Assembly: GCA_963834625.1 (NCBI GenBank)
Contig: CAWICM010000009.1
Coordinates: forward strand, 426,706 to 490,705
Source: an uncultured Solirubrobacterales bacterium
GTDB lineage: Bacteria; Actinomycetota; Thermoleophilia; Solirubrobacterales; Solirubrobacteraceae
DNA: 64,000 nucleotides
Direction of reading: 5' to 3'
In this document: one piece after another, positions 13,272-21,231 of the stretch
Position numbering within the stretch: position 1 is the stretch's first letter
Layout of the letters: the number at the start of each line of letters is the position of its first letter
Notes under the pieces: model-generated
Seen by the model: only the letters and a program-made list of their open reading frames with translations
Told to the model about the DNA's origin: nothing
The model's database searches: none
Translations under genes and position numbers: made by a program

Positions 13272-14129
13272 TCAGTCGGTCCTGGACTCTCGTTCCCCGG
13301 GCTCGGATTCCCGTTCCCCGGGCTCGGATTCCTGTTCCGCGCGCTCGGATTCCTGTTCCCGCGGCTCGGATTCCTGTTCCGCGGGCTCGGATTCCCGTTC
13401 CGCGCGCTCGGATTCCTGTTCCCCGGGCTCGGATTCCCGTTCCGCGCGCTCGGCCTTCCTTTTTCGCCACCGCCACACCCGCCGCCCGATGAAGAAGACG
13501 ATCACCAGCCCCACGGCGATCGCGAAATACGCCTCGTAGCGCGTCGCCGTGTTGTAGATGCTGTCGATGTGGTCGCCCGAGAAGTAGCCGATCGACACCC
13601 ACACCCCAACCCAGAGCGCGGCGCCGAGTGCGTTGAACGGGATGAACCGCGTCCAGTGCATTCCGGTGATCCCGGCGATGATCCCGTTGGCCTGTCGCAG
13701 GCCCTCGACGAACCGGGCGATCACGATCACCTTCCCGCCATGCTGGTCGAAGAAGGCCGCGGCCTTGTCCAGGCGCTCGGGGGTCAGGAAGATGTACTTG
13801 CCGAACCGCTCGGCCAGCGGCCGGCCGCCGAAATGCCCGATCGCGAAGCCGACGTTGTCGCCGAGGAGGGCGGCCAGGAAGCCGAAGAGCGCCACGAGCC
13901 AGATGTTCAGTCGCCCGGTGCCCGCATAGATCGCCGAGACGATGAGCACGGTCTCGCCGGGCACCGGAATCCCGAAGTCCTCCAGGAACACCAGACCGAG
14001 CGCGAGATAGCCGAAGCGGTCGAGCGTCGGCTCGAGGCTGTGCAGGACGCCCGGAAGATGCGCGGGCGCAGCGGCGGCCGTTAGGAGGGGGTCGAACACG
14101 GTGCAGACCCTACCCGCGGGCTCTGCCAT
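13272..14129 (-). CDS. DedA family membrane protein with an acidic heptad-repeat tail
   Basis: GIPVPGET, GDNVGFAIG and ARFVEGLR. The start may be the GTG near 14099. Confidence 0.92.
   Translation of the reverse strand: MAEPAGRVCTVFDPLLTAAAAPAHLPGVLHSLEPTLDRFGYLALGLVFLEDFGIPVPGETVLIVSAIYAGTGRLNIWLVALFGFLAALLGDNVGFAIGHFGGRPLAERFGKYIFLTPERLDKAAAFFDQHGGKVIVIARFVEGLRQANGIIAGITGMHWTRFIPFNALGAALWVGVWVSIGYFSGDHIDSIYNTATRYEAYFAIAVGLVIVFFIGRRVWRWRKRKAERAERESEPGEQESERAERESEPAEQESEPREQESERAEQESEPGERESEPGERESRTD
13290..13453 (-). repeat. In-frame 21-nt tandem repeat (about 7.5 copies) encoding ESE(P/R)x(E)(Q/R)
   Basis: Units of G(G/C)GCTCGGATTCC(C/T)GTTCC(C/G)(C/G) on the plus strand. Confidence 0.9.
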
Positions 14130-14138
14130 GATCGCGAC

Positions 14139-15152
14139 ATGACCGCCGTCAGGCTGACCTCGCTATCGCACGGCGCCGGCTGTGCGTGCAAGGTGCCCGC
14201 GGCGCTGCTCGCGCCCCTTATCCAGGATCTACCGCGCTCGGCCGATCCGGACCTGCTGGTGGGCACCGAGACGAGCGACGACGCGGGCGTCTACCGCCTG
14301 CGCGAGGACCTGGCGCTGGTGCAGACCGCCGACTTCTTCACCCCGATCGTCGACGATCCCTACGACTTCGGGCGGATCGCCGCCACCAACGCCCTGTCCG
14401 ACGTGTACGCGATGGGAGGCCGGCCGGTCAGCGCCCTGAACCTGGTGGCGTGGTCGATTGCCGACCTCGGCGCGGAGATGCTCGGAGAGGTGCTGCGCGG
14501 TGGCTACGACGTGGTCAGCGCGGCCGGGGCGGTGATCGTGGGCGGCCACACGATCGACGACCCCGAGCCCAAGTACGGCCTGGCGGTCACCGGCGTGCTC
14601 GACCCGGCCGACCTGATCACGAACGCCGGCGGACGCGCCGGGGACGCGCTGGTCCTGACCAAGCCCGTCGGGGCGGGCGCGATCACTACATCGTTGAAGA
14701 AGGGATTGGTCGGCGACGAGACACTGGCGGCTGCGGTCGAGGTCATGACCGAGCTCAACGAGACCGCGGCGCAGGCGGCGCGGGCAGCGGGCGCCCGCGC
14801 GATGACCGACGTGACCGGCTTCGGGCTGCTCGGTCATCTGCACGAGCTGACCCTGGCCAGCGGCGTGGCCGCTGAGATCGAGGCCCGGGCAGTGCCCGCG
14901 ATCGACGGCGCGCTCGAGCTTCTGGCCGACGACCGGGCGGTCGCCGGCGGGAGCCGCAACAACCGCCGCTATGCCGAGGAGTTCGCCGTGTTCGAGGACG
15001 ACGTCGACGAGGTGCGCAGGAGGCTCGTGACCGACGCGATGACCTCGGGTGGGCTGCTCGTGGCGGTTGATCCGGCGCGGGCCGACGAGATCCCGGGCGC
15101 GCTGATCGGGCGGCTCACCACCGGCGAGCCGGGCACGATCAGCGTCATTTGA
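14139..15152 (+). CDS. selD: Selenide, water dikinase (Cys-type active site)
   Basis: HGAGCACK, DDAGVY, DFFTPIVDDPYDFGRIAATNALSDVYAMGG, DVTGFGLLGH and TSGGLL. Confidence 0.96.
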   Translation: MTAVRLTSLSHGAGCACKVPAALLAPLIQDLPRSADPDLLVGTETSDDAGVYRLREDLALVQTADFFTPIVDDPYDFGRIAATNALSDVYAMGGRPVSALNLVAWSIADLGAEMLGEVLRGGYDVVSAAGAVIVGGHTIDDPEPKYGLAVTGVLDPADLITNAGGRAGDALVLTKPVGAGAITTSLKKGLVGDETLAAAVEVMTELNETAAQAARAAGARAMTDVTGFGLLGHLHELTLASGVAAEIEARAVPAIDGALELLADDRAVAGGSRNNRRYAEEFAVFEDDVDEVRRRLVTDAMTSGGLLVAVDPARADEIPGALIGRLTTGEPGTISVI

Positions 15153-15822
15153 GGCGTTCCAGGTCCTCGCGCGCCGCGACGCCCAGGTATCGCCCCTCGG
15201 GCGTGGTGACGATCGCCCAGCGATAGCCCCTGTCGGCCAGGAAGCCGGCGACCTTACCTGCGGATGCGTGCGGGCGAAATGTTTTCGGGCCAGGCTCCGC
15301 GACGTCCCAGACCGGCCCCGCTGAGGCGGGATCCAGGACGGTGGACGGAGCTCGCCCGAGCAACGTGCGGTCGTCGCTCGTGACCAGCGCGAACGGGTAG
15401 GGCGAACGCTCGATCGACTCGCACACCTCGGCGATGCGATCGGTAGGACGGCACAGCGCGGCGTCGTCGCGCATCGCGCGTCCAGCGGTCGGCGCGTAGG
15501 TCTCGTCGCCTTCAAGCGGCAGGTTGTGTGCCAGCCAGTCGACCTTCCCGGGCACGTAGTCGTAGACGTCGGTGAACCCGAGCGTGTCGAGCCGGCACGC
15601 GGCTCGTGGACTGAGGTCTCAGAGGGAGTCCCAGCAGTACACGACCACCGGTCGGGTGCGATCGAGTACAGCCGCGTGCTGCTCGTCGAGCTCGCGCAAC
15701 GGCAGGTTGACCGCGCCCGGAAGGTGCGCCGGGGCGTAGTCGTCGCTGGGCAGCACCTCGACCAGCTGCGATCCCCGGTCGATCAGCTCCTGGAGTTGCT
15801 CTAGGCAGATCGGCGTGGCCAT
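15145..15822 (-). CDS. Rhodanese-CBS domain protein, probable selenoprotein (in-frame UGA at 15621-15619)
   Basis: Track ORFs 15619..15822 and 15145..15555 share a frame. Read-through gives VVVYCWDSL-U-DLSPRAACRLDTLGFTDVYDYVPGKVDW, which completes the rhodanese domain, followed by a CBS pair. Confidence 0.8.
15588..15606 (-). promoter_or_regulatory. Candidate bacterial SECIS hairpin
   Basis: CGAGCCG-CGTGC-CGGCTCG; the loop starts 20 nt after the UGA and has G at loop position 2. Confidence 0.6.
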
Positions 15823-15834
15823 GGTGCCGGGTGG

Positions 15835-16335
15835 CTACCCGATGCCGAGCTCGCCCAGCGCCTGCACCAGCACGTCGCGGGTGGCTTCGAGCGCCTGCGG
15901 GATCACGTTCGTGGCGGCCAGCACCGGCATGAAGTTGTTATCGCCGCTCCATCTCGGCACCACGTGCAGGTGCACGTGGTCGACGATCCCGGCGCCGGCC
16001 ACCTTGCCGAGGTTGTAGCCCACGTTGAAGCCGTCGGGCGTCATCGCGTGGCGGATGGCCAGGATCGACCGGCGGGTGAGCTGCATGGTCTCGAGCATTT
16101 CGTCTGGGGTCAGGTCCTCGAGCGCCCCGACGTGGCGGACCGGCGCGACCATCATGTGGCCCGGGGCGTACGGGAACGCGTTCAGGATGGTCAGGCAGTG
16201 CTCGGTGCGGTCGATCGGCTGATGGGCGGGATCCTCGTTGCGACCGGTCGCGGCCGCGCAGAAGATGCAATCCCCATCCTTGGGTCCGGTGATGTACTCG
16301 ATGCGCCAGGGCGCCCAAAGTGGCCGGTCGGTCAT
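15835..16335 (-). CDS. HIT family hydrolase (Ap4A phosphorylase/hydrolase-like)
   Basis: CIFC, LNAFPYAPGHMMVAP and HVHLHVVPRW. Confidence 0.93.
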   Translation of the reverse strand: MTDRPLWAPWRIEYITGPKDGDCIFCAAATGRNEDPAHQPIDRTEHCLTILNAFPYAPGHMMVAPVRHVGALEDLTPDEMLETMQLTRRSILAIRHAMTPDGFNVGYNLGKVAGAGIVDHVHLHVVPRWSGDNNFMPVLAATNVIPQALEATRDVLVQALGELGIG

Positions 16336-16355: not shown

Positions 16356-16910
16356 GTGTTCCACATCGAGCTTCGCCAGTTTCCCCACCAGACACGGGTG
16401 TTCAACCTCACGCCCGAGCAGCTCGAGGCGCGGATCGTCGGCCCATGGGTGGCCGGTCGTACGATCGAGCTCGACGAACGCCGCTGGGACTCGGACCGGG
16501 CCAGGCTGACGATCTACGAGGGACCGGAACTCTCGCCCGACCAGCTCGGGATGGGACGGGGATGGGCCAACGTGACCCGTTCCGGAAAGGAGGTGACCGC
16601 GCGCGTGCTGGCCAACCGAGCGCAGCCCGCGCCGGTCGCCGAGCTCAAGCGCGATCTGATCGAGAGCTGCGCCTACGGAGCCGTCCCGCTACGGCGGCTC
16701 GTCGAGCTCACCGGCGAGCGCTATCCGCAGTCGCGGGTGAGCGAGCGGATCGCCCTGTGCGAGCAGGTGGCGTGGGAGCTGCTGCACGAGGGGACGGTGC
16801 GGCTCGTGCGGGCGGGGATGACGGTCGAGCGCTCCGACTGGCAGGACGCGCTGCTGCGCTGGGAGGCGTGGAGCGGCGAGGCCGTGACCCTTGCGACGGC
16901 CCAGCCCTAG
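16356..16910 (+). CDS. Hypothetical protein
   Basis: Normal composition, GTG start, divergent from the HIT gene; no family recognised. Confidence 0.6.
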   Translation: MFHIELRQFPHQTRVFNLTPEQLEARIVGPWVAGRTIELDERRWDSDRARLTIYEGPELSPDQLGMGRGWANVTRSGKEVTARVLANRAQPAPVAELKRDLIESCAYGAVPLRRLVELTGERYPQSRVSERIALCEQVAWELLHEGTVRLVRAGMTVERSDWQDALLRWEAWSGEAVTLATAQP

Positions 16911-18052
16911 GCGACCAGGTCGTCGATCAGCTGCTCCCTTTCGGCCTGAGAGCCGAACAGGTAGCGGTGGATGCGTACGAGGCCCTCGATGTCGTGCACG
17001 TCGTCGTCCAGCTGGGGCACGAGCAGCAGCCGGCGCTCGTCGAGCTCACTAGCCAGGCGAACCAAGTTCTGCTCGTCGCGGCGCGCCAGCACGTGGTAAT
17101 CGCGGAAGTTCTCGGCCACGCGGGTGGCCAGCCCCGGCGGGAGCACCCGGGCCAAGGACCGCCTGACCTCGCGCGGCGGGCGATCGCCCAGGAGGTCGTG
17201 GTGGACGCGGTTCACGACCACGCCGGCGAACGGGAGCCCGTCGGCCTCGAGCCGCTGCCCGAACCAGATGGCCTCGTCGATCGGCTCGCGAGCGGCCGAG
17301 GTGACGAGTAGGAACGCCGTGCTCTCAGCCCGCAGCAACTGCTCGACCTGGGCCGCGCGCTGGCTGAAGTCGTTGGTCATGTCGCCGAGGAGCTGAAAGA
17401 ACGTGGTCAGGTCGCTGATCAGGTCGATCCCGGTGATCCGTCGCAGGCCGCCCAGCAGCGGGAGCGCACCGCGCCCCAGGGCGCGGAAGCCGAGCCCCGT
17501 GGGCTTCATGAACGCCTTCAAGGCGCGCCCTTCCAGGAACGCATTGAGCCGGCCCGGCGCGTCGAGGAACTCGAGCGCGTTGCGCGAGGGCGGCGTGTCG
17601 AGCACCAGCAGATCGAAGTCCCCGTCCTGGTCGAGCTCGTAGAGCTTGGCGATCGCGGTCAGCTCCTGGGAACCCGACACCGCGGTGGACAGCTCCCGGT
17701 ACACGCGGTTGGCCTTGATCTCCTCCGCGCGCCCAGGCTCCGGCGCGATCCGGTCGATCAGCTCGTCGAACGTCCGCTTGGGATCGAGCATCATGGCCCA
17801 CAGCTCGCCCTGGACGTCCAGCGCGCCGCCGGCCAGGCGTTCCGGCTTCACCCGGCGCGGCTCGTTCTCGAGCTCCTCGAGACCCAGCGCGTCGGCCAGC
17901 CGGTTGGCCGGGTCGATCGTCACCACGGCCACCTTGGCGCCGGTGGCGGCCATGCCGAGCGCGATCGCGGCCGAGCTCGTGGTCTTGCCCACGCCCCCAG
18001 ACCCGGCGCACACGCACACCCGCTTGCCTTCGAGCATCTCGGCGACGTTCAC
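16907..18052 (-). CDS. ArsA/Get3-like ATPase
   Basis: GSGGVGKTT, TIDPA and DTPP. Confidence 0.92.
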   Translation of the reverse strand: MNVAEMLEGKRVCVCAGSGGVGKTTSSAAIALGMAATGAKVAVVTIDPANRLADALGLEELENEPRRVKPERLAGGALDVQGELWAMMLDPKRTFDELIDRIAPEPGRAEEIKANRVYRELSTAVSGSQELTAIAKLYELDQDGDFDLLVLDTPPSRNALEFLDAPGRLNAFLEGRALKAFMKPTGLGFRALGRGALPLLGGLRRITGIDLISDLTTFFQLLGDMTNDFSQRAAQVEQLLRAESTAFLLVTSAAREPIDEAIWFGQRLEADGLPFAGVVVNRVHHDLLGDRPPREVRRSLARVLPPGLATRVAENFRDYHVLARRDEQNLVRLASELDERRLLLVPQLDDDVHDIEGLVRIHRYLFGSQAEREQLIDDLVA

Positions 18053-18975
18053 AGCGCGTCCTCCAGGGCGCCGGCCAGGAGCTCGAGCTGTGGGAGTCCG
18101 ACCGCTTCGGCGAACAGGTAGGGAAGCTCGACGAGCCGGCCGTCCACCCGCTCGCGAAGCCGGTCGCGCTGCTCGCGCTGGGTGGCCGCCCGGGCGTGCT
18201 CGGACAGCGCGGCGCGCAGCGCGGAGCGGGCCAGCGCCGAGCGGGTCTTCGCGAGCGCGTCGTTCAGCTCGCCGATCTCGGCCGCGTCGAAGCGAGCCGG
18301 ATAGACGGCGTTGACGATCACGAGGTCGAGCGGAAGCTCATCACGGGCCAGCTCGTCGGCCAGCGTCATCGTCTCGTTGACCGGCATCTCCTCGGGCGTG
18401 GCCACCGCGACCACGCCGGTGAACTCGGAGTCGGCGATCGTGTCGGCGATCGTGCGCCCCTGATGGGCGATCGGGCCGACCCGGGCGATGCCGGCGAACG
18501 TCCGCGGCGTGCGCAGAAGGCCCATGCCGTGACCGGTGGCCGGCGCATCGACGATCACGAGGTCATAGGGCGCGGCGCCGCGGGTCCGGCGATGCAGCTG
18601 AGCGAGCTCCCACACCTTGCCGATACTGAGGAGCTCGCGCATCCCGGGGGTGGCCATCGCGAAGGCCTGGAACAGCCGGCTCGACCCCAGAGCCTGGCCG
18701 ATCGTTCCGGCCTTGACGCGCAGGTACTCCTCCATGGCGCGCTGGGGATCGATCGAGATCGTGAACAGCCCGGGCGCCAGCTCGATCTCGCGGAACTGCT
18801 CGCGCTCATCGTCGGAGAAGACGCCCTGCATACGCTCCTGGCTGGCCATCTCGGCGACGATCGTACGCAGCCCCCGCCGGGCCGCGAGCAGCCCGAGGGC
18901 GATGGCGACCGTGGACTTGCCGACGCCACCCTTGCCCGTGACGAACAGCAGACGCTTGTCCAGGAGGGAGGCCAC
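18049..18975 (-). CDS. ArsA/Get3-like ATPase (upstream partner)
   Basis: GKGGVGKST, DAPATGH and PEEMPVNET; overlaps the second ArsA gene. Confidence 0.92.
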   Translation of the reverse strand: MASLLDKRLLFVTGKGGVGKSTVAIALGLLAARRGLRTIVAEMASQERMQGVFSDDEREQFREIELAPGLFTISIDPQRAMEEYLRVKAGTIGQALGSSRLFQAFAMATPGMRELLSIGKVWELAQLHRRTRGAAPYDLVIVDAPATGHGMGLLRTPRTFAGIARVGPIAHQGRTIADTIADSEFTGVVAVATPEEMPVNETMTLADELARDELPLDLVIVNAVYPARFDAAEIGELNDALAKTRSALARSALRAALSEHARAATQREQRDRLRERVDGRLVELPYLFAEAVGLPQLELLAGALEDAL

Positions 18976-19061
18976 CGCACTCGAAAATAGCGGGGGGGTG
19001 GGGGCGGAGGATCCCGTCCGGCGGAGGATTCCGGTTGCGCGCTGCGAATAGTGCCCTCGAT

Positions 19062-19820
19062 ATGAGCCACGTGATCGCGTTCGCCAACCAGAAGGGTGGG
19101 GTCGCCAAGACCACCACGACGCTCAACCTCGCGGTGGCGTTCGCCGAGGAGGGACATCGCGTTCTCTGCGTGGACATGGACCCCCAGGGCAACCTGACCA
19201 TGTCCCAGGGCATCGACCCCGACACGCTCGAGAAGTCGATGTACGACGTGCTGGTGCATCACATCTCGATTCGCGAGGTGATCCGCAAGCGCGAGGTCGA
19301 TGTGGCCTGCTCCTCGATCGACCTGGCCGGCGCCGAGATCGCGATGTCGACGATGATCGGCCGTGAGCGCTCGTTGCAGAAGGCGCTGAAGCCGGTCGAG
19401 GACGACTACGACTACGTCTTCATCGACACTCCGCCGAGCCTGGGCCTGCTCACGATCAACGCTCTGACCTCCGCGCACAAGGTGATCGTCCCCGTGCAAT
19501 GCGAATATCTATCGATGCGCGGCCTGATCCAGCTGCAGAACACGCTCGCCATGATTCGCGAGAACCTCAACCCGGACGTCGAGATCGAGGGCATCCTGCC
19601 CACGCTGGTCGACATCCGGACGCTGCACGCCAAGGAGGCGATCGAGTTGCTGGAGGAGAACTTCGGCGACCGGGTGTTCGCCTCCCGGATCCGCAAGACG
19701 ATCCGCTTCGCCGAGGCGCCCGTGAAGGGCATGTCGGTCCTGAAGTACGATCCGGACGGCGTGGCCGCACACGCCTATCGGCAGCTCGCGAAGGAGGTCC
19801 TCTCGAATGCCCACCGGTAA
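19062..19820 (+). CDS. ParA/Soj family ATPase
   Basis: NQKGGVAKTTT, DMDPQGN, IDTPPSLG and PVQCEY. Confidence 0.95.
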   Translation: MSHVIAFANQKGGVAKTTTTLNLAVAFAEEGHRVLCVDMDPQGNLTMSQGIDPDTLEKSMYDVLVHHISIREVIRKREVDVACSSIDLAGAEIAMSTMIGRERSLQKALKPVEDDYDYVFIDTPPSLGLLTINALTSAHKVIVPVQCEYLSMRGLIQLQNTLAMIRENLNPDVEIEGILPTLVDIRTLHAKEAIELLEENFGDRVFASRIRKTIRFAEAPVKGMSVLKYDPDGVAAHAYRQLAKEVLSNAHR

Positions 19821-21231
19821 GCGCGCAAGCATGCGTGAGGGACCGCTCGCAGCGCTGTTCCGCAAGACCGCCGAGGACGTCGAACACAAGCCTGAGCCGG
19901 AGCCGCCGGCGCGACCTGCCGCGCCGGTGAACGAGGAGCCGGCCGCGCCACCGGAGCCCGAGGTCGAAGAGCCGCGCATTCCGCTGCCGCACGAGCGCCT
20001 GCGCCACGCCTTCTCCGCCGACATCCCCGAGAACATGCTCGAGCGGCCAGCCGGCTCCGCCGCAGGGCCGCCGGCAGAGCCCGAGCCCGATGTCTACGCG
20101 CGAGCCGGCCGGGCCGGCGATGCACCGACACGCTCCACCAAGCTCGGTCCGGTATTGCGCGTGGTCGGCGTCGGCGGCGCCGGGGTCAACGCGATCAATC
20201 GGATGGTCGAGGCCGAGATCGCGGGGGTCGAGTTCCTGGCCGTCAACACCGACCTGCAATCGCTTCAGCTGTCGGCCGCGCACGAGACGCTCCACATCGG
20301 CGACGCGATCACGCATGGGCTCGGCTCGGGCTCCAACCCGGAGCTCGGGCGGGCTGCCGCGCGCGACGAGTACGACCGGATCAAGGCCATGCTGCGCGGC
20401 TCGGACATGGTGTTCATCGCCGCCGGCGCGGGCGGCGGGACGGGCACCGGCGCGGCGCCGATCGTGGCCCAGATCGCCCGCGAGCTCGGCGCGCTGACCG
20501 TCGGCATAGTCACGCGGCCCTTCCAGTTCGAGGGCACCCGCCGGCGCGATCAGGCCGAGGTGGGCATCGCCGCGCTGGCCGCCGAGGTCGACACGCTGAT
20601 CGTGGTCCCCAACAACCGGTTGCTGTCGGTGCTCGACCGCAACGTCTCGATGGTCGAGGCGTTCCGCGTGGCGGACGACGTGCTCCGCCAGGGCGTGCAG
20701 GGCATCTCCGACCTGGTCACGCTCCCCGGGCTGATCAACCTCGATTTCGCCGACGTGCGCACGATCATGTCCGGCGCAGGCAACGCCCTGCTCGGGATCG
20801 GCATGGGCACCGGGGAGCGCCGGGCGGTCGAAGCTGCCGAGCACGCGGTGGCCTCGCCGCTGCTCGAGACGAGCATGGAGGGTGCGCGCTCGATCCTGCT
20901 CTCGATCACCGGGGGTCCCGACCTGTCGCTGTGGGAGGTCAACGAGTCGGCCAAGGCAGTGGCCGAGGCCGCCCATCCTGACGCCAACATCATCTTCGGC
21001 GCGATGGTCGACGAGAAACTCATCGACAACGTCTGGGTGACGGTGATCGCCACCGGCTACGGCGACGGCCGGTCGCAGCGCCGGCAGCCCATCAGGACGG
21101 AGGTCGGGGAGGCCGGTCGCGACGACCGCTCGAGGCTGCGCGAGCCGGCCGGCGAGCCGCGCGTGAGCCGCGTGCGCCAGCGCCCGAGTACGCTCGATCT
21201 CGACGTACCGGAATTCATTCCTCGTAGATAG
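19807..21231 (+). CDS. ftsZ: Cell division protein FtsZ with an approximately 115-aa N-terminal extension
   Basis: VGVGGAGVNA, GAGGGTGTG, INLDFADV and C-terminal LDVPEFIP. The start overlaps the parA stop region. Confidence 0.95.
   Translation: MPTGKRASMREGPLAALFRKTAEDVEHKPEPEPPARPAAPVNEEPAAPPEPEVEEPRIPLPHERLRHAFSADIPENMLERPAGSAAGPPAEPEPDVYARAGRAGDAPTRSTKLGPVLRVVGVGGAGVNAINRMVEAEIAGVEFLAVNTDLQSLQLSAAHETLHIGDAITHGLGSGSNPELGRAAARDEYDRIKAMLRGSDMVFIAAGAGGGTGTGAAPIVAQIARELGALTVGIVTRPFQFEGTRRRDQAEVGIAALAAEVDTLIVVPNNRLLSVLDRNVSMVEAFRVADDVLRQGVQGISDLVTLPGLINLDFADVRTIMSGAGNALLGIGMGTGERRAVEAAEHAVASPLLETSMEGARSILLSITGGPDLSLWEVNESAKAVAEAAHPDANIIFGAMVDEKLIDNVWVTVIATGYGDGRSQRRQPIRTEVGEAGRDDRSRLREPAGEPRVSRVRQRPSTLDLDVPEFIPRR

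Follow-up and report, generated by a model that had tools for sequence, protein, structure and literature searches.

A gene on the reverse strand (15822-15145) of a 64,000-nucleotide stretch from an uncultured Solirubrobacterales bacterium (contig CAWICM010000009.1 of assembly GCA_963834625.1, positions 426,706 to 490,705; here called the window) is very probably a previously unannotated selenoprotein gene, belonging to a new family within a well-known class. Translation gives a single frame of 225 codons plus stop that contains exactly one internal stop codon, a TGA (...RPVVVYCWDSL*DLSPRAACRLDTLGF..., where the asterisk marks the TGA). The list of open reading frames (ORFs) shows the gene as two halves, 15619-15822 (67 aa) and 15145-15555 (136 aa). 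The explanation we favor, and hold with considerable confidence, is that both halves belong to one cytoplasmic protein of 225 residues, a rhodanese domain joined to a pair of CBS domains, in which the UGA is read as selenocysteine (Sec, U) and the active-site loop C63-W-D-S-L-U68 carries a Cys-Sec couple; with its flanks the loop reads YC63WDSL-U68-DLSPRAA. Three hallmarks of selenoproteins are found together: an in-frame UGA that is conserved, Cys at the same position in homologues, and a selenocysteine insertion sequence (SECIS) whose conservation goes beyond the needs of coding.

A first-pass annotation of this DNA had proposed a hidden selenoprotein, made of two ORFs that are one frame split by a single UGA inside a rhodanese active-site loop. 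Translation of 15822-15145 confirms the single frame, and the Pfam domain at residues 8-98, together with the loop position in an AlphaFold2 (AF2) model of a Cys homologue, puts the UGA where it had been placed. The proposal of a selenoprotein is itself upheld by a column that holds only TGA or Cys codons (with one TCA), by the conserved hairpin, and by selection in the same frame. The gene product aligns end to end with full-length Cys homologues (222-236 aa), and a scan of the 64-kb window for further TGA-split coding frames left this gene as the only plausible one.

The codon at the internal UGA and the frame beyond it

The codon was read directly in 80 fetched loci from species-representative genomes (L001 and L013 being the same contig). 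TGA stands in the Sec column in 78 of 81 related loci, and TGC or TGT in three; loci with a Cys codon are L045, L055, L065 and L089, and TGA was likewise read in L082, L083, L085, L086 and L091. Carriers of TGA are mostly metagenome-assembled genomes (MAGs) of Solirubrobacterales, joined by MAGs of Thermoleophilia and Miltoncostaeaceae and by cultured Micromonospora, Actinomycetospora and Pseudonocardia; the TGA form is also found on two Pseudonocardia plasmids and one Rubrobacter marinus plasmid. The codon is thereby kept across at least three actinobacterial classes, in genomes that have diverged to ~50% identity.

In a protein search with the read-through sequence as query, the close relatives (74-83% identity) are all truncated 'CBS domain' fragments of 136-159 residues, and the distant relatives (50-61% identity) are full-length proteins of 222-236 residues in which the UGA column is Cys (motif YCWDALCDxSPRAA). 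The top 120 matches include 64 full-length proteins, of which 60 have Cys in this column, three 'W' and one Ser. Two of the three 'W' proteins were checked (P0002 and P0021); in both the codon is TGA, which the gene caller had translated with genetic code 4. Over about 145 homologues the column shows TGA or a Cys codon throughout, with TCA as the one exception. Together with the three TGC/TGT loci, these counts agree with the expectation of the first-pass annotation that homologues would carry Cys where this gene has UGA. Nonomuraea gerenzanensis carries the Cys form (L089 6001-6597; CHDWLCDLSPRAAH) and no hairpin, in a genome with selD and tRNA-SeC (L090 13026-13119); the Cys form is thus possible in Sec-competent genomes. 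The N. gerenzanensis record is labelled 'plasmid I' at 11.85 Mb and is evidently a chromosome.

If the UGA were a true stop, the locus would represent a pseudogene, an assembly error, or two genes, one for a 67-aa rhodanese stub and one for a CBS protein. We find this hardly credible. Gene callers and RefSeq do give two coding sequences, and an ATG lies two codons past the UGA in 23 loci. Against this stand the retention of TGA over such divergence, the continuity of the Cys homologues, and the nature of the stub, since the 67-residue product of a stop at the UGA would end inside the active-site loop. The first in-frame start after the UGA is 22 codons downstream in the window, its position varies from 2 to 62 codons across loci, and no internal start codon downstream of the UGA is conserved across the compared loci. 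In 78 distinct TGA-form sequences, variation in codons +1 to +33 past the UGA is almost confined to third positions, and the amino acids remain fixed (third-position entropy is, for example, 1.57 bit at Gly +14 and 1.43 bit at Gly +24; Asp +27 and Ala +30 are further cases), a pattern that indicates purifying selection in the same frame. This protein-level selection already acts on the 22 codons that separate the UGA from the first start in the window. An assembly error, a doubt raised at the outset, can be set aside: three further public soil-metagenome runs yield assembled contigs that read the TGA here with no difference.

The SECIS-like hairpin and the selenocysteine machinery

A hairpin with a stem of 6-7 bp starts 13 nt after the UGA (12-nt spacer) and spans +16 to +34. 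The first-pass annotation had described a 7-bp hairpin with a G in its loop at SECIS distance, and both the sequence and a near-zero synonymous entropy sustain that description. Over the hairpin codons +5 to +10 (R-A-A-C-R-L) synonymous entropy is 0-0.39 bit, compared to 1.0-1.9 bit at the other four- and six-fold degenerate codons of the same alignment. The codons GCC, GCG and CGG are each used in 78 of 78 sequences, and Arg +5 is encoded in 72 of 78 by the rare codon CGA, which other Arg codons of the gene use in only 3-7 cases. In an RNAalifold alignment the six core base pairs are formed in all 76 distinct sequences; the sole departures are two that yield G-U pairs (A18 to G, C33 to U) and one in the loop (C27 to U). 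In Rubrobacter, loop C27 is G, which adds one pair (8-bp stem, GUG loop) and keeps the structure. Judged from this codon and base-pair conservation, the hairpin is under RNA-level selection.

The Cys forms bear on the same point. The loop also encodes Cys76, which all 78 Sec forms have but only 8 of 60 Cys forms, most of the latter reading RAATRL or RAAARL at the hairpin codons; this residue is a by-product of the GUGC in the loop. The hairpin is lost in two of three Cys-form genome loci and kept in the third (L045, TGT), and most Cys-form homologues are without it. The hairpin of L045 resembles the 'fossil SECIS' that recent conversions of Sec to Cys have been described as leaving (PMC1794560).

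Bacterial SECIS elements are stem-loops with a small apical loop containing G and U (PMC1088965). Like those of the Escherichia coli fdhF type, the hairpin lies within the ORF immediately 3' of the UGA and has a small G(U) loop; it differs in having an unrelated sequence and no evident bulged U. In E. coli fdhF 11 nt separate the UGA from the minimal upper stem, a geometry similar to that found here. The pairs of a possible extended lower stem are mostly invariant or coding-constrained, and thus lend that extension weak support.

The machinery that Sec insertion requires is represented next to the gene by SelD (TIGR00476). Strains listed as positive for SelD, SelA and SelB (Peng 2016 Table S1) include Solirubrobacter soli, Solirubrobacter sp., Patulibacter americanus, Conexibacter woesei Iso977N, five of five Micromonospora, four of five Pseudonocardia, and Actinomycetospora chiangmaiensis; YbbB, YqeB and YqeC are absent from all of them, and SelD in these taxa can thus be assigned to Sec alone. 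Formate removal depended on added selenium in A. chiangmaiensis, whose proteome contained SelA, SelB and SelD (PMC7176365). Miltoncostaea oceani (Thermoleophilia) has selD, selA, selB and tRNA-SeC in one row (L087 20001-24247 and 24296-26052), and a Miltoncostaeaceae MAG (L075) carries the TGA form of the rhodanese-CBS gene. Support from the Sec machinery of the carrier taxa is at the level of taxa only, yet good.

The M. oceani cluster sits on an 816-kb 'plasmid' and is faced by convergent genes for an FAD oxidoreductase and an ordinary rhodanese (loop CAEGYQS) unrelated to the rhodanese-CBS family. A selA-selB pair was also seen on a 1.47-Mb soil MAG contig (L088 8691-11560), where SelB has 519 aa compared to ~597 aa in Miltoncostaea; SelB proteins of 500-530 residues are numerous among the search matches. 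As in the clade of the window, selD is not adjacent to selA-selB on that contig.

Several observations weigh against a selenoprotein. One metagenomic homologue (P0061; L084 8199-8201) has TCA (Ser) at the Sec site with the hairpin intact, which points either to a sequencing error or to Sec having been lost very recently. The hairpin folds no more stably than shuffled sequence (z = -0.5, in DNA of 70% G+C), no fully compensatory double substitution occurs among the 76 distinct hairpin sequences, and no SECIS-type Rfam family matches the hairpin at the gathering threshold or at E <= 10; since the energy is not exceptional, the case for a SECIS rests on conservation. Neither selA, selB nor tRNA-Sec was found within the 64-kb window: a tRNA scan gave no tRNA in the window and no tRNA-Sec near the gene in 60 loci, Pfam gave no SelA or SelB domain in the ten largest ORFs of the window, and a regular-expression search gave no SelB-type translational-GTPase motif in the window or the fetched loci. 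A search with M. oceani SelB gave many matches in related MAGs; among the best 8,000 candidates none lies on a contig whose length equals that of a contig bearing the rhodanese-CBS gene or of the window's own contig (588,684 bp), a comparison too shallow to count as a negative. Lastly, the chemistry proposed below for Cys63 and Sec68 is inferred from where the two residues lie in the model predicted for a Cys homologue.

Read-through of the UGA as a standard amino acid (near-cognate Trp or Cys, or a reassigned code), with the hairpin merely stimulating it, is very unlikely. Stimulatory hairpins for stop-codon read-through exist in other systems, and for the host of the window the evidence of selA, selB and selC is at the level of taxa only. 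UGA, however, is the commonest ordinary stop in the window, where it ends 19 of 39 coding ORFs, including selD and the rhodanese-CBS gene, and this excludes a reassigned genetic code. The alternative residue is Cys, as in Sec/Cys pairs, and never Trp; the small GU loop, starting 19 nt after the UGA, fits a bacterial SECIS (PMC1088965); and the carrier genera are documented as positive for SelA and SelB (Peng 2016 Table S1). Insertion of Sec thus stays the reading that we prefer.

Active-site loop, CBS pair and proposed chemistry

The AF2 model was made for the Cys homologue P0011 with 48 aligned homologues (predicted local distance difference test, pLDDT, 94; predicted template-modeling score, pTM, 0.76). 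In this model a strand (59-62) ends at Cys63, which is invariant (TGC in 78 of 78), and a helix (70-80) follows residue 68. Canonical rhodaneses have the loop C-R-x-G-x-[R/T], in which the Arg or Thr at the last position contacts the persulfide; residue 68, being the last loop residue before the helix, sits at that position. The loop C-W-D-S-L-U departs from the pattern of canonical thiosulfate sulfurtransferases, and all named NCBIfam rhodanese enzyme models score far below their cut-offs. The domain is recognizable as a rhodanese by PF00581 above threshold, by a catalytic Cys at the end of the central strand, and by its alignment with PDB entry 3NHV. This protein, BH2092 of Bacillus halodurans (3NHV/3O3W), is the best match of the N-terminal domain in both Foldseek and phmmer (E = 2e-10, template-modeling (TM) score 0.73, root-mean-square deviation 1.7 A): it has the same loop YCW-x3-C (C-x4-C), and its loop Cys aligns with Cys63. 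BH2092 differs in being an all-Cys protein of a Firmicute with no CBS pair, and is a structural-genomics rhodanese without assigned function.

The first-pass annotation had also assigned a CBS pair to the C-terminal half, and Pfam, AF2 and Foldseek concur. PF00571 matches the second repeat (residues 173-221, 26.4 bits vs 24), and both repeats appear in the model of P0011 as two beta-alpha-beta-beta-alpha units. Foldseek pairs this half with the CBS pairs of MgtE, CBSX1/2, AcuB and others (TM 0.7-0.83), all of which share the fold; AcuB structures with AMP, ADP, ATP and Ap4A are among the matches. The CBS pairs of MgtE, CBSX1/2 and AcuB bind adenine nucleotides, but the canonical G-h-h-S/T-x-x-D ribose motifs are degenerate in the rhodanese-CBS protein. 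Adenylate regulation through the CBS pair is plausible.

According to the scheme we propose, SelB together with Sec-tRNA(Sec) would bind the hairpin and insert Sec at the UGA, with selenophosphate for the insertion supplied by the neighboring SelD. Sec68, at the last loop position, would come within bonding distance of Cys63 (as judged from the predicted model of the Cys homologue), and the two would form a redox-active thiol/selenol couple. Sec68 might then resolve a persulfide or perselenide on Cys63, with release of HS- or HSe- and formation of a Cys-Sec selenenylsulfide that a thioredoxin-like partner would re-reduce; alternatively, Cys63 and Sec68 might chelate Hg(II) or another soft metal. 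Control of this chemistry would lie with the CBS pair and its ligand. The likely function is that of a Cys-Sec redox or chelating pair on a sulfur-transfer scaffold, and paralogues may differ in what they act on, be it sulfane sulfur, selenium or a thiophilic metal.

Genomic context, known systems and significance

The gene and selD are convergent, and their 3' ends share 15145-15152; the 8-nt overlap reported by the first-pass annotation is therefore real. Its further suggestion, that the protein possibly feeds SelD, found no support in a survey of neighborhoods in 82 loci. A HIT gene lies upstream in 28 of these, always in the selD-linked clade, and selD lies convergent downstream in 26 of the 28, the remaining two loci being cut short. 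In 56 loci no selD occurs within 10 kb, including the close relatives L003, L005 and L007 (80-84% identity); in one MAG a linked paralogue and an unlinked one occur together (L002, L029); and none of the copies from Micromonospora, Pseudonocardia, Actinomycetospora or other Solirubrobacterales among the 82 loci is linked to selD. Linkage that recurs independently across lineages was not seen. As the gene orders stand, the adjacency is one vertically inherited HIT-rhodanese/CBS-selD synteny block of one Solirubrobacterales clade and a single evolutionary event. Being lineage-specific synteny, it provides no evidence for a dedicated role in feeding SelD.

A dedicated selenium carrier would be loaded with perselenide and hand it to SelD, with the CBS pair sensing adenylate. 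The tail-to-tail overlap in the window and 25 related loci speaks for such a role, as does the restriction of SelD to the Sec trait in these taxa. Moreover, rhodanese can bind selenium and has been discussed as a candidate delivery protein for selenophosphate synthetase: it served as an in-vitro selenium donor for SelD in the work of Ogasawara, Lacourciere and Stadtman (2001), as recounted in PMC8538045, where the physiological relevance is called unclear. The likeness to that system, so far as this account describes it, is a rhodanese fold beside a selenophosphate synthetase gene; the difference is that an ordinary Cys rhodanese was used there, and that the linkage to selD here is confined to one lineage. 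We nevertheless consider the carrier role unlikely. Beyond the single block of linkage, the convergent orientation means that the two genes are not co-transcribed, plasmid-borne copies are located in metal-resistance islands, and a selenium chaperone that itself needs Sec faces a bootstrapping problem. Quite improbable, in our judgment, is a bolder form in which Sec biosynthesis depends on a selenoprotein: the C-x4-U rhodanese would be a selenium chaperone passing Cys-S-Se(-Se-Sec) to SelD, and its CBS pair would sense an adenylate, for example Ap4A, whose synthesis or breakdown would fall to the co-transcribed HIT enzyme. If true, it would imply an autocatalytic, energy-gated selenium economy, and mer-linked paralogues would reuse the same chemistry for Hg-Se detoxification. 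Thiol/selenol redox or soft-metal handling is more likely than the feeding of SelD.

A different context is found elsewhere. Metal-related genes (mer, regulator or DF genes) lie near the rhodanese-CBS gene in 23 of the 82 loci, drawn from five groups (Pseudonocardia, Micromonospora, Actinomycetospora, Thermoleophilia and Solirubrobacterales), and in most of these they are co-directional and directly upstream. They comprise a 'DF family (seleno)protein' in its Cys form (NF049942, 104 bits vs cut-off 70) in 14 loci, ArsR/SmtB regulators in 11, MerR-family regulators in 7, MerA in 6 (TIGR02053, 504 bits vs 454) and MerB in 5 (NF033555, 218 vs 200). A plasmid of Pseudonocardia autotrophica carries, in this order, MerR, an alkylmercury-lyase-family gene, DF, the rhodanese-CBS gene, a hypothetical gene and a major facilitator superfamily (MFS) transporter. 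The DF protein is small and thioredoxin-like, with motifs FDGCPxH and GSPTVRV and no Pfam match (L029 9664-10017), and at least 12 loci, spread over several orders, have its gene directly upstream in the same orientation (L029, L038, L048, L049, L053, L057, L062, L064, L070, L071, L074 and L085, 8583-8933); it may be a redox partner of the rhodanese-CBS selenoprotein. The P. autotrophica plasmid locus also holds an arsenic cluster (L085 1-3542: low-molecular-weight phosphatase, ArsO monooxygenase, arsenic resistance protein and MerR regulator), and this cluster and IS30/IS5 transposases lie within about 5 kb of the selenoprotein operon, forming a mobile metal(loid)-resistance island.

These neighborhoods suggest an accessory of soft-metal or organomercurial detoxification, in which Cys63 and Sec68 bind Hg(II) or another thiophile and pass it to MerA or MerB with the DF protein as partner, a role we regard as possible rather than probable. 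The gene follows immediately and co-directionally on MerA, MerB and ArsR/SmtB or MerR-family regulators, and on the P. autotrophica plasmid the mercury-related genes stand beside arsenic genes and insertion sequence (IS) elements. A 2026 review (PMC13188914) counts SaoL, a MerB-like organometallic lyase, among the selenoproteins, as it does a putative mercuric transport protein, and MerB2 and MerP appear in Peng 2016 Table S3. However, the copy in the window, whose neighbors are HIT, ArsA-like ATPases and selD, has no mer, ArsR or DF neighbor, nor do its 27 syntenic relatives; about 30 loci have unrelated neighbors; rhodanese domains are not known as mercury carriers; and the association may mean shared thiol-stress regulation and not a shared pathway. 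On these gene orders, the mer/DF association is recurrent and operon-like, yet absent from the window.

Coordinates of the gene, its parts and its neighbors are collected in Table 1. The HIT gene ends 12 nt upstream of the ATG, and the two genes probably share one transcript; against NF052622 the HIT product scores 153 bits, below the cut-off of 290.

Table 1. The rhodanese-CBS gene, its predicted elements and adjacent genes (window coordinates)
Feature	Coordinates	Strand	Details
Complete rhodanese-CBS selenoprotein gene (putative)	15145..15822	-	225 residues; ATG 15822-15820; terminal TGA 15147-15145
In-frame UGA, codon 68, predicted to be read as Sec	15619..15621	-	Codon census; Cys in homologues
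Codon 63 (TGC), canonical rhodanese catalytic Cys, 5 residues before Sec68	15634..15636	-	
SECIS-like hairpin CGAGCCG / CGUGC / CGGCUCG	15588..15606	-	Apical loop 15599-15595
Possible extended lower stem including the UGA (UGAG pairs with positions 46-49), tentative	15573..15621	-	RNAalifold consensus; minimum free energy fold
Rhodanese homology domain, residues 8-98	15529..15801	-	PF00581, 50.8 bits vs cut-off 22.2
CBS pair (Bateman module), ~residues 110-225	15148..15495	-	PF00571, AF2, Foldseek
selD (selenide, water dikinase; Cys form 'GAGCACK')	14139..15152	+	TIGR00476, 385.5 bits vs cut-off 125
HIT-family gene (related to Ap4A phosphorylase / ATP adenylyltransferase)	15835..16335	-	PF01230, 58.8 bits

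Elsewhere in the window, a gene with a VTT/DedA domain (13272-14129, -) abuts selD; its C-terminal tail (13272-13450) consists of imperfect acidic repeats (ERESEPGEQESERA...), the opposite strand of which reads as repeated 'GTGIRAR' ORFs, a low-complexity tandem repeat in a membrane-protein gene. Two overlapping genes for ArsA-like P-loop ATPases (16907-18052 and 18049-18975, both -) are divergent from a ParA/MinD-like ATPase gene (19035-19820, +), followed by an FtsZ-family gene (19807-21231, +) with an N-terminal extension of ~117 residues; this ArsA-like/ParA-MinD/FtsZ block is also kept in L001. A cyclic di-AMP (ydaO-type) riboswitch (2610-2769, -; 52.6 bits vs 38) precedes an ORF (1796-2563, -) with a DPBB_1 (RlpA-like lytic transglycosylase) domain.

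The rhodanese-CBS selenoprotein family appears to be undescribed. No model for it exists in NCBIfam (release 20.0), and a literature search found no paper that joins selenoprotein, CBS domain and rhodanese, nor one with a CBS pair fused to a rhodanese. A 2026 catalogue of prokaryotic selenoproteins (PMC13188914) lists five rhodanese forms (UxxS, UxxG, CxU, UxxG and UxxxxU), with neither a CxxxxU form nor a CBS fusion among them. The nearest analogue is the U-x4-U rhodanese domain of TsoB ('rhodanese form 5', UxxxxU, like a rhodanese/DsbD fusion; PMC13188914), likewise a rhodanese selenoprotein with two chalcogen residues spaced by x4. TsoB has two Sec and a DsbD-like membrane part, whereas here, with the motifs compared by description, the first position is always Cys, a CBS pair follows, and the protein looks soluble. 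The TsoB model NF045694 is also the best partial match among NCBIfam selenoproteins, at 22 bits over residues 20-110 versus a cut-off of 805, so that the protein is not a member; the LYCAU-type rhodanese-related (seleno)protein NF041203 gives 18.4 bits versus 115. LYCAU ('form 3', CxU) and forms 1, 2 and 4 (UxxS/UxxG) share with the family a rhodanese selenoprotein, Sec/Cys pairs and an in-ORF SECIS. In form 3, however, Sec lies at +2 from the catalytic Cys rather than at +5, in forms 1, 2 and 4 Sec replaces the catalytic Cys that is kept here, and forms 1-4 are single-domain proteins, none with a CBS pair. In kind, the family is another Sec/Cys-pair selenoprotein with an in-ORF SECIS. Present annotation divides it: on the Pseudonocardia plasmid copies RefSeq gives a 66-residue 'rhodanese-like domain-containing protein' and a 'CBS domain-containing protein', and in Rubrobacter marinus the CBS part alone is annotated.

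In most listed strains of aerobic soil actinobacteria one or two selenoproteins per genome were counted, with a maximum of five in a Pseudonocardia; among bacterial selenoprotein families, formate dehydrogenase is much the most frequent (Peng 2016). The family would be a second widespread selenoprotein in Solirubrobacterales, Micromonospora, Pseudonocardia, Actinomycetospora and Rubrobacter, and a curated model would mend many genome annotations that now show two unrelated small genes. With Sec beside, and not replacing, the catalytic Cys of a rhodanese, it would offer a natural thiol/selenol pair in a well-understood loop. Its occurrence next to selD and in mobile mercury/arsenic islands would provide a handle on cross-talk between selenium, sulfur and mercury, and several carriers are cultured, which makes the predictions directly testable.

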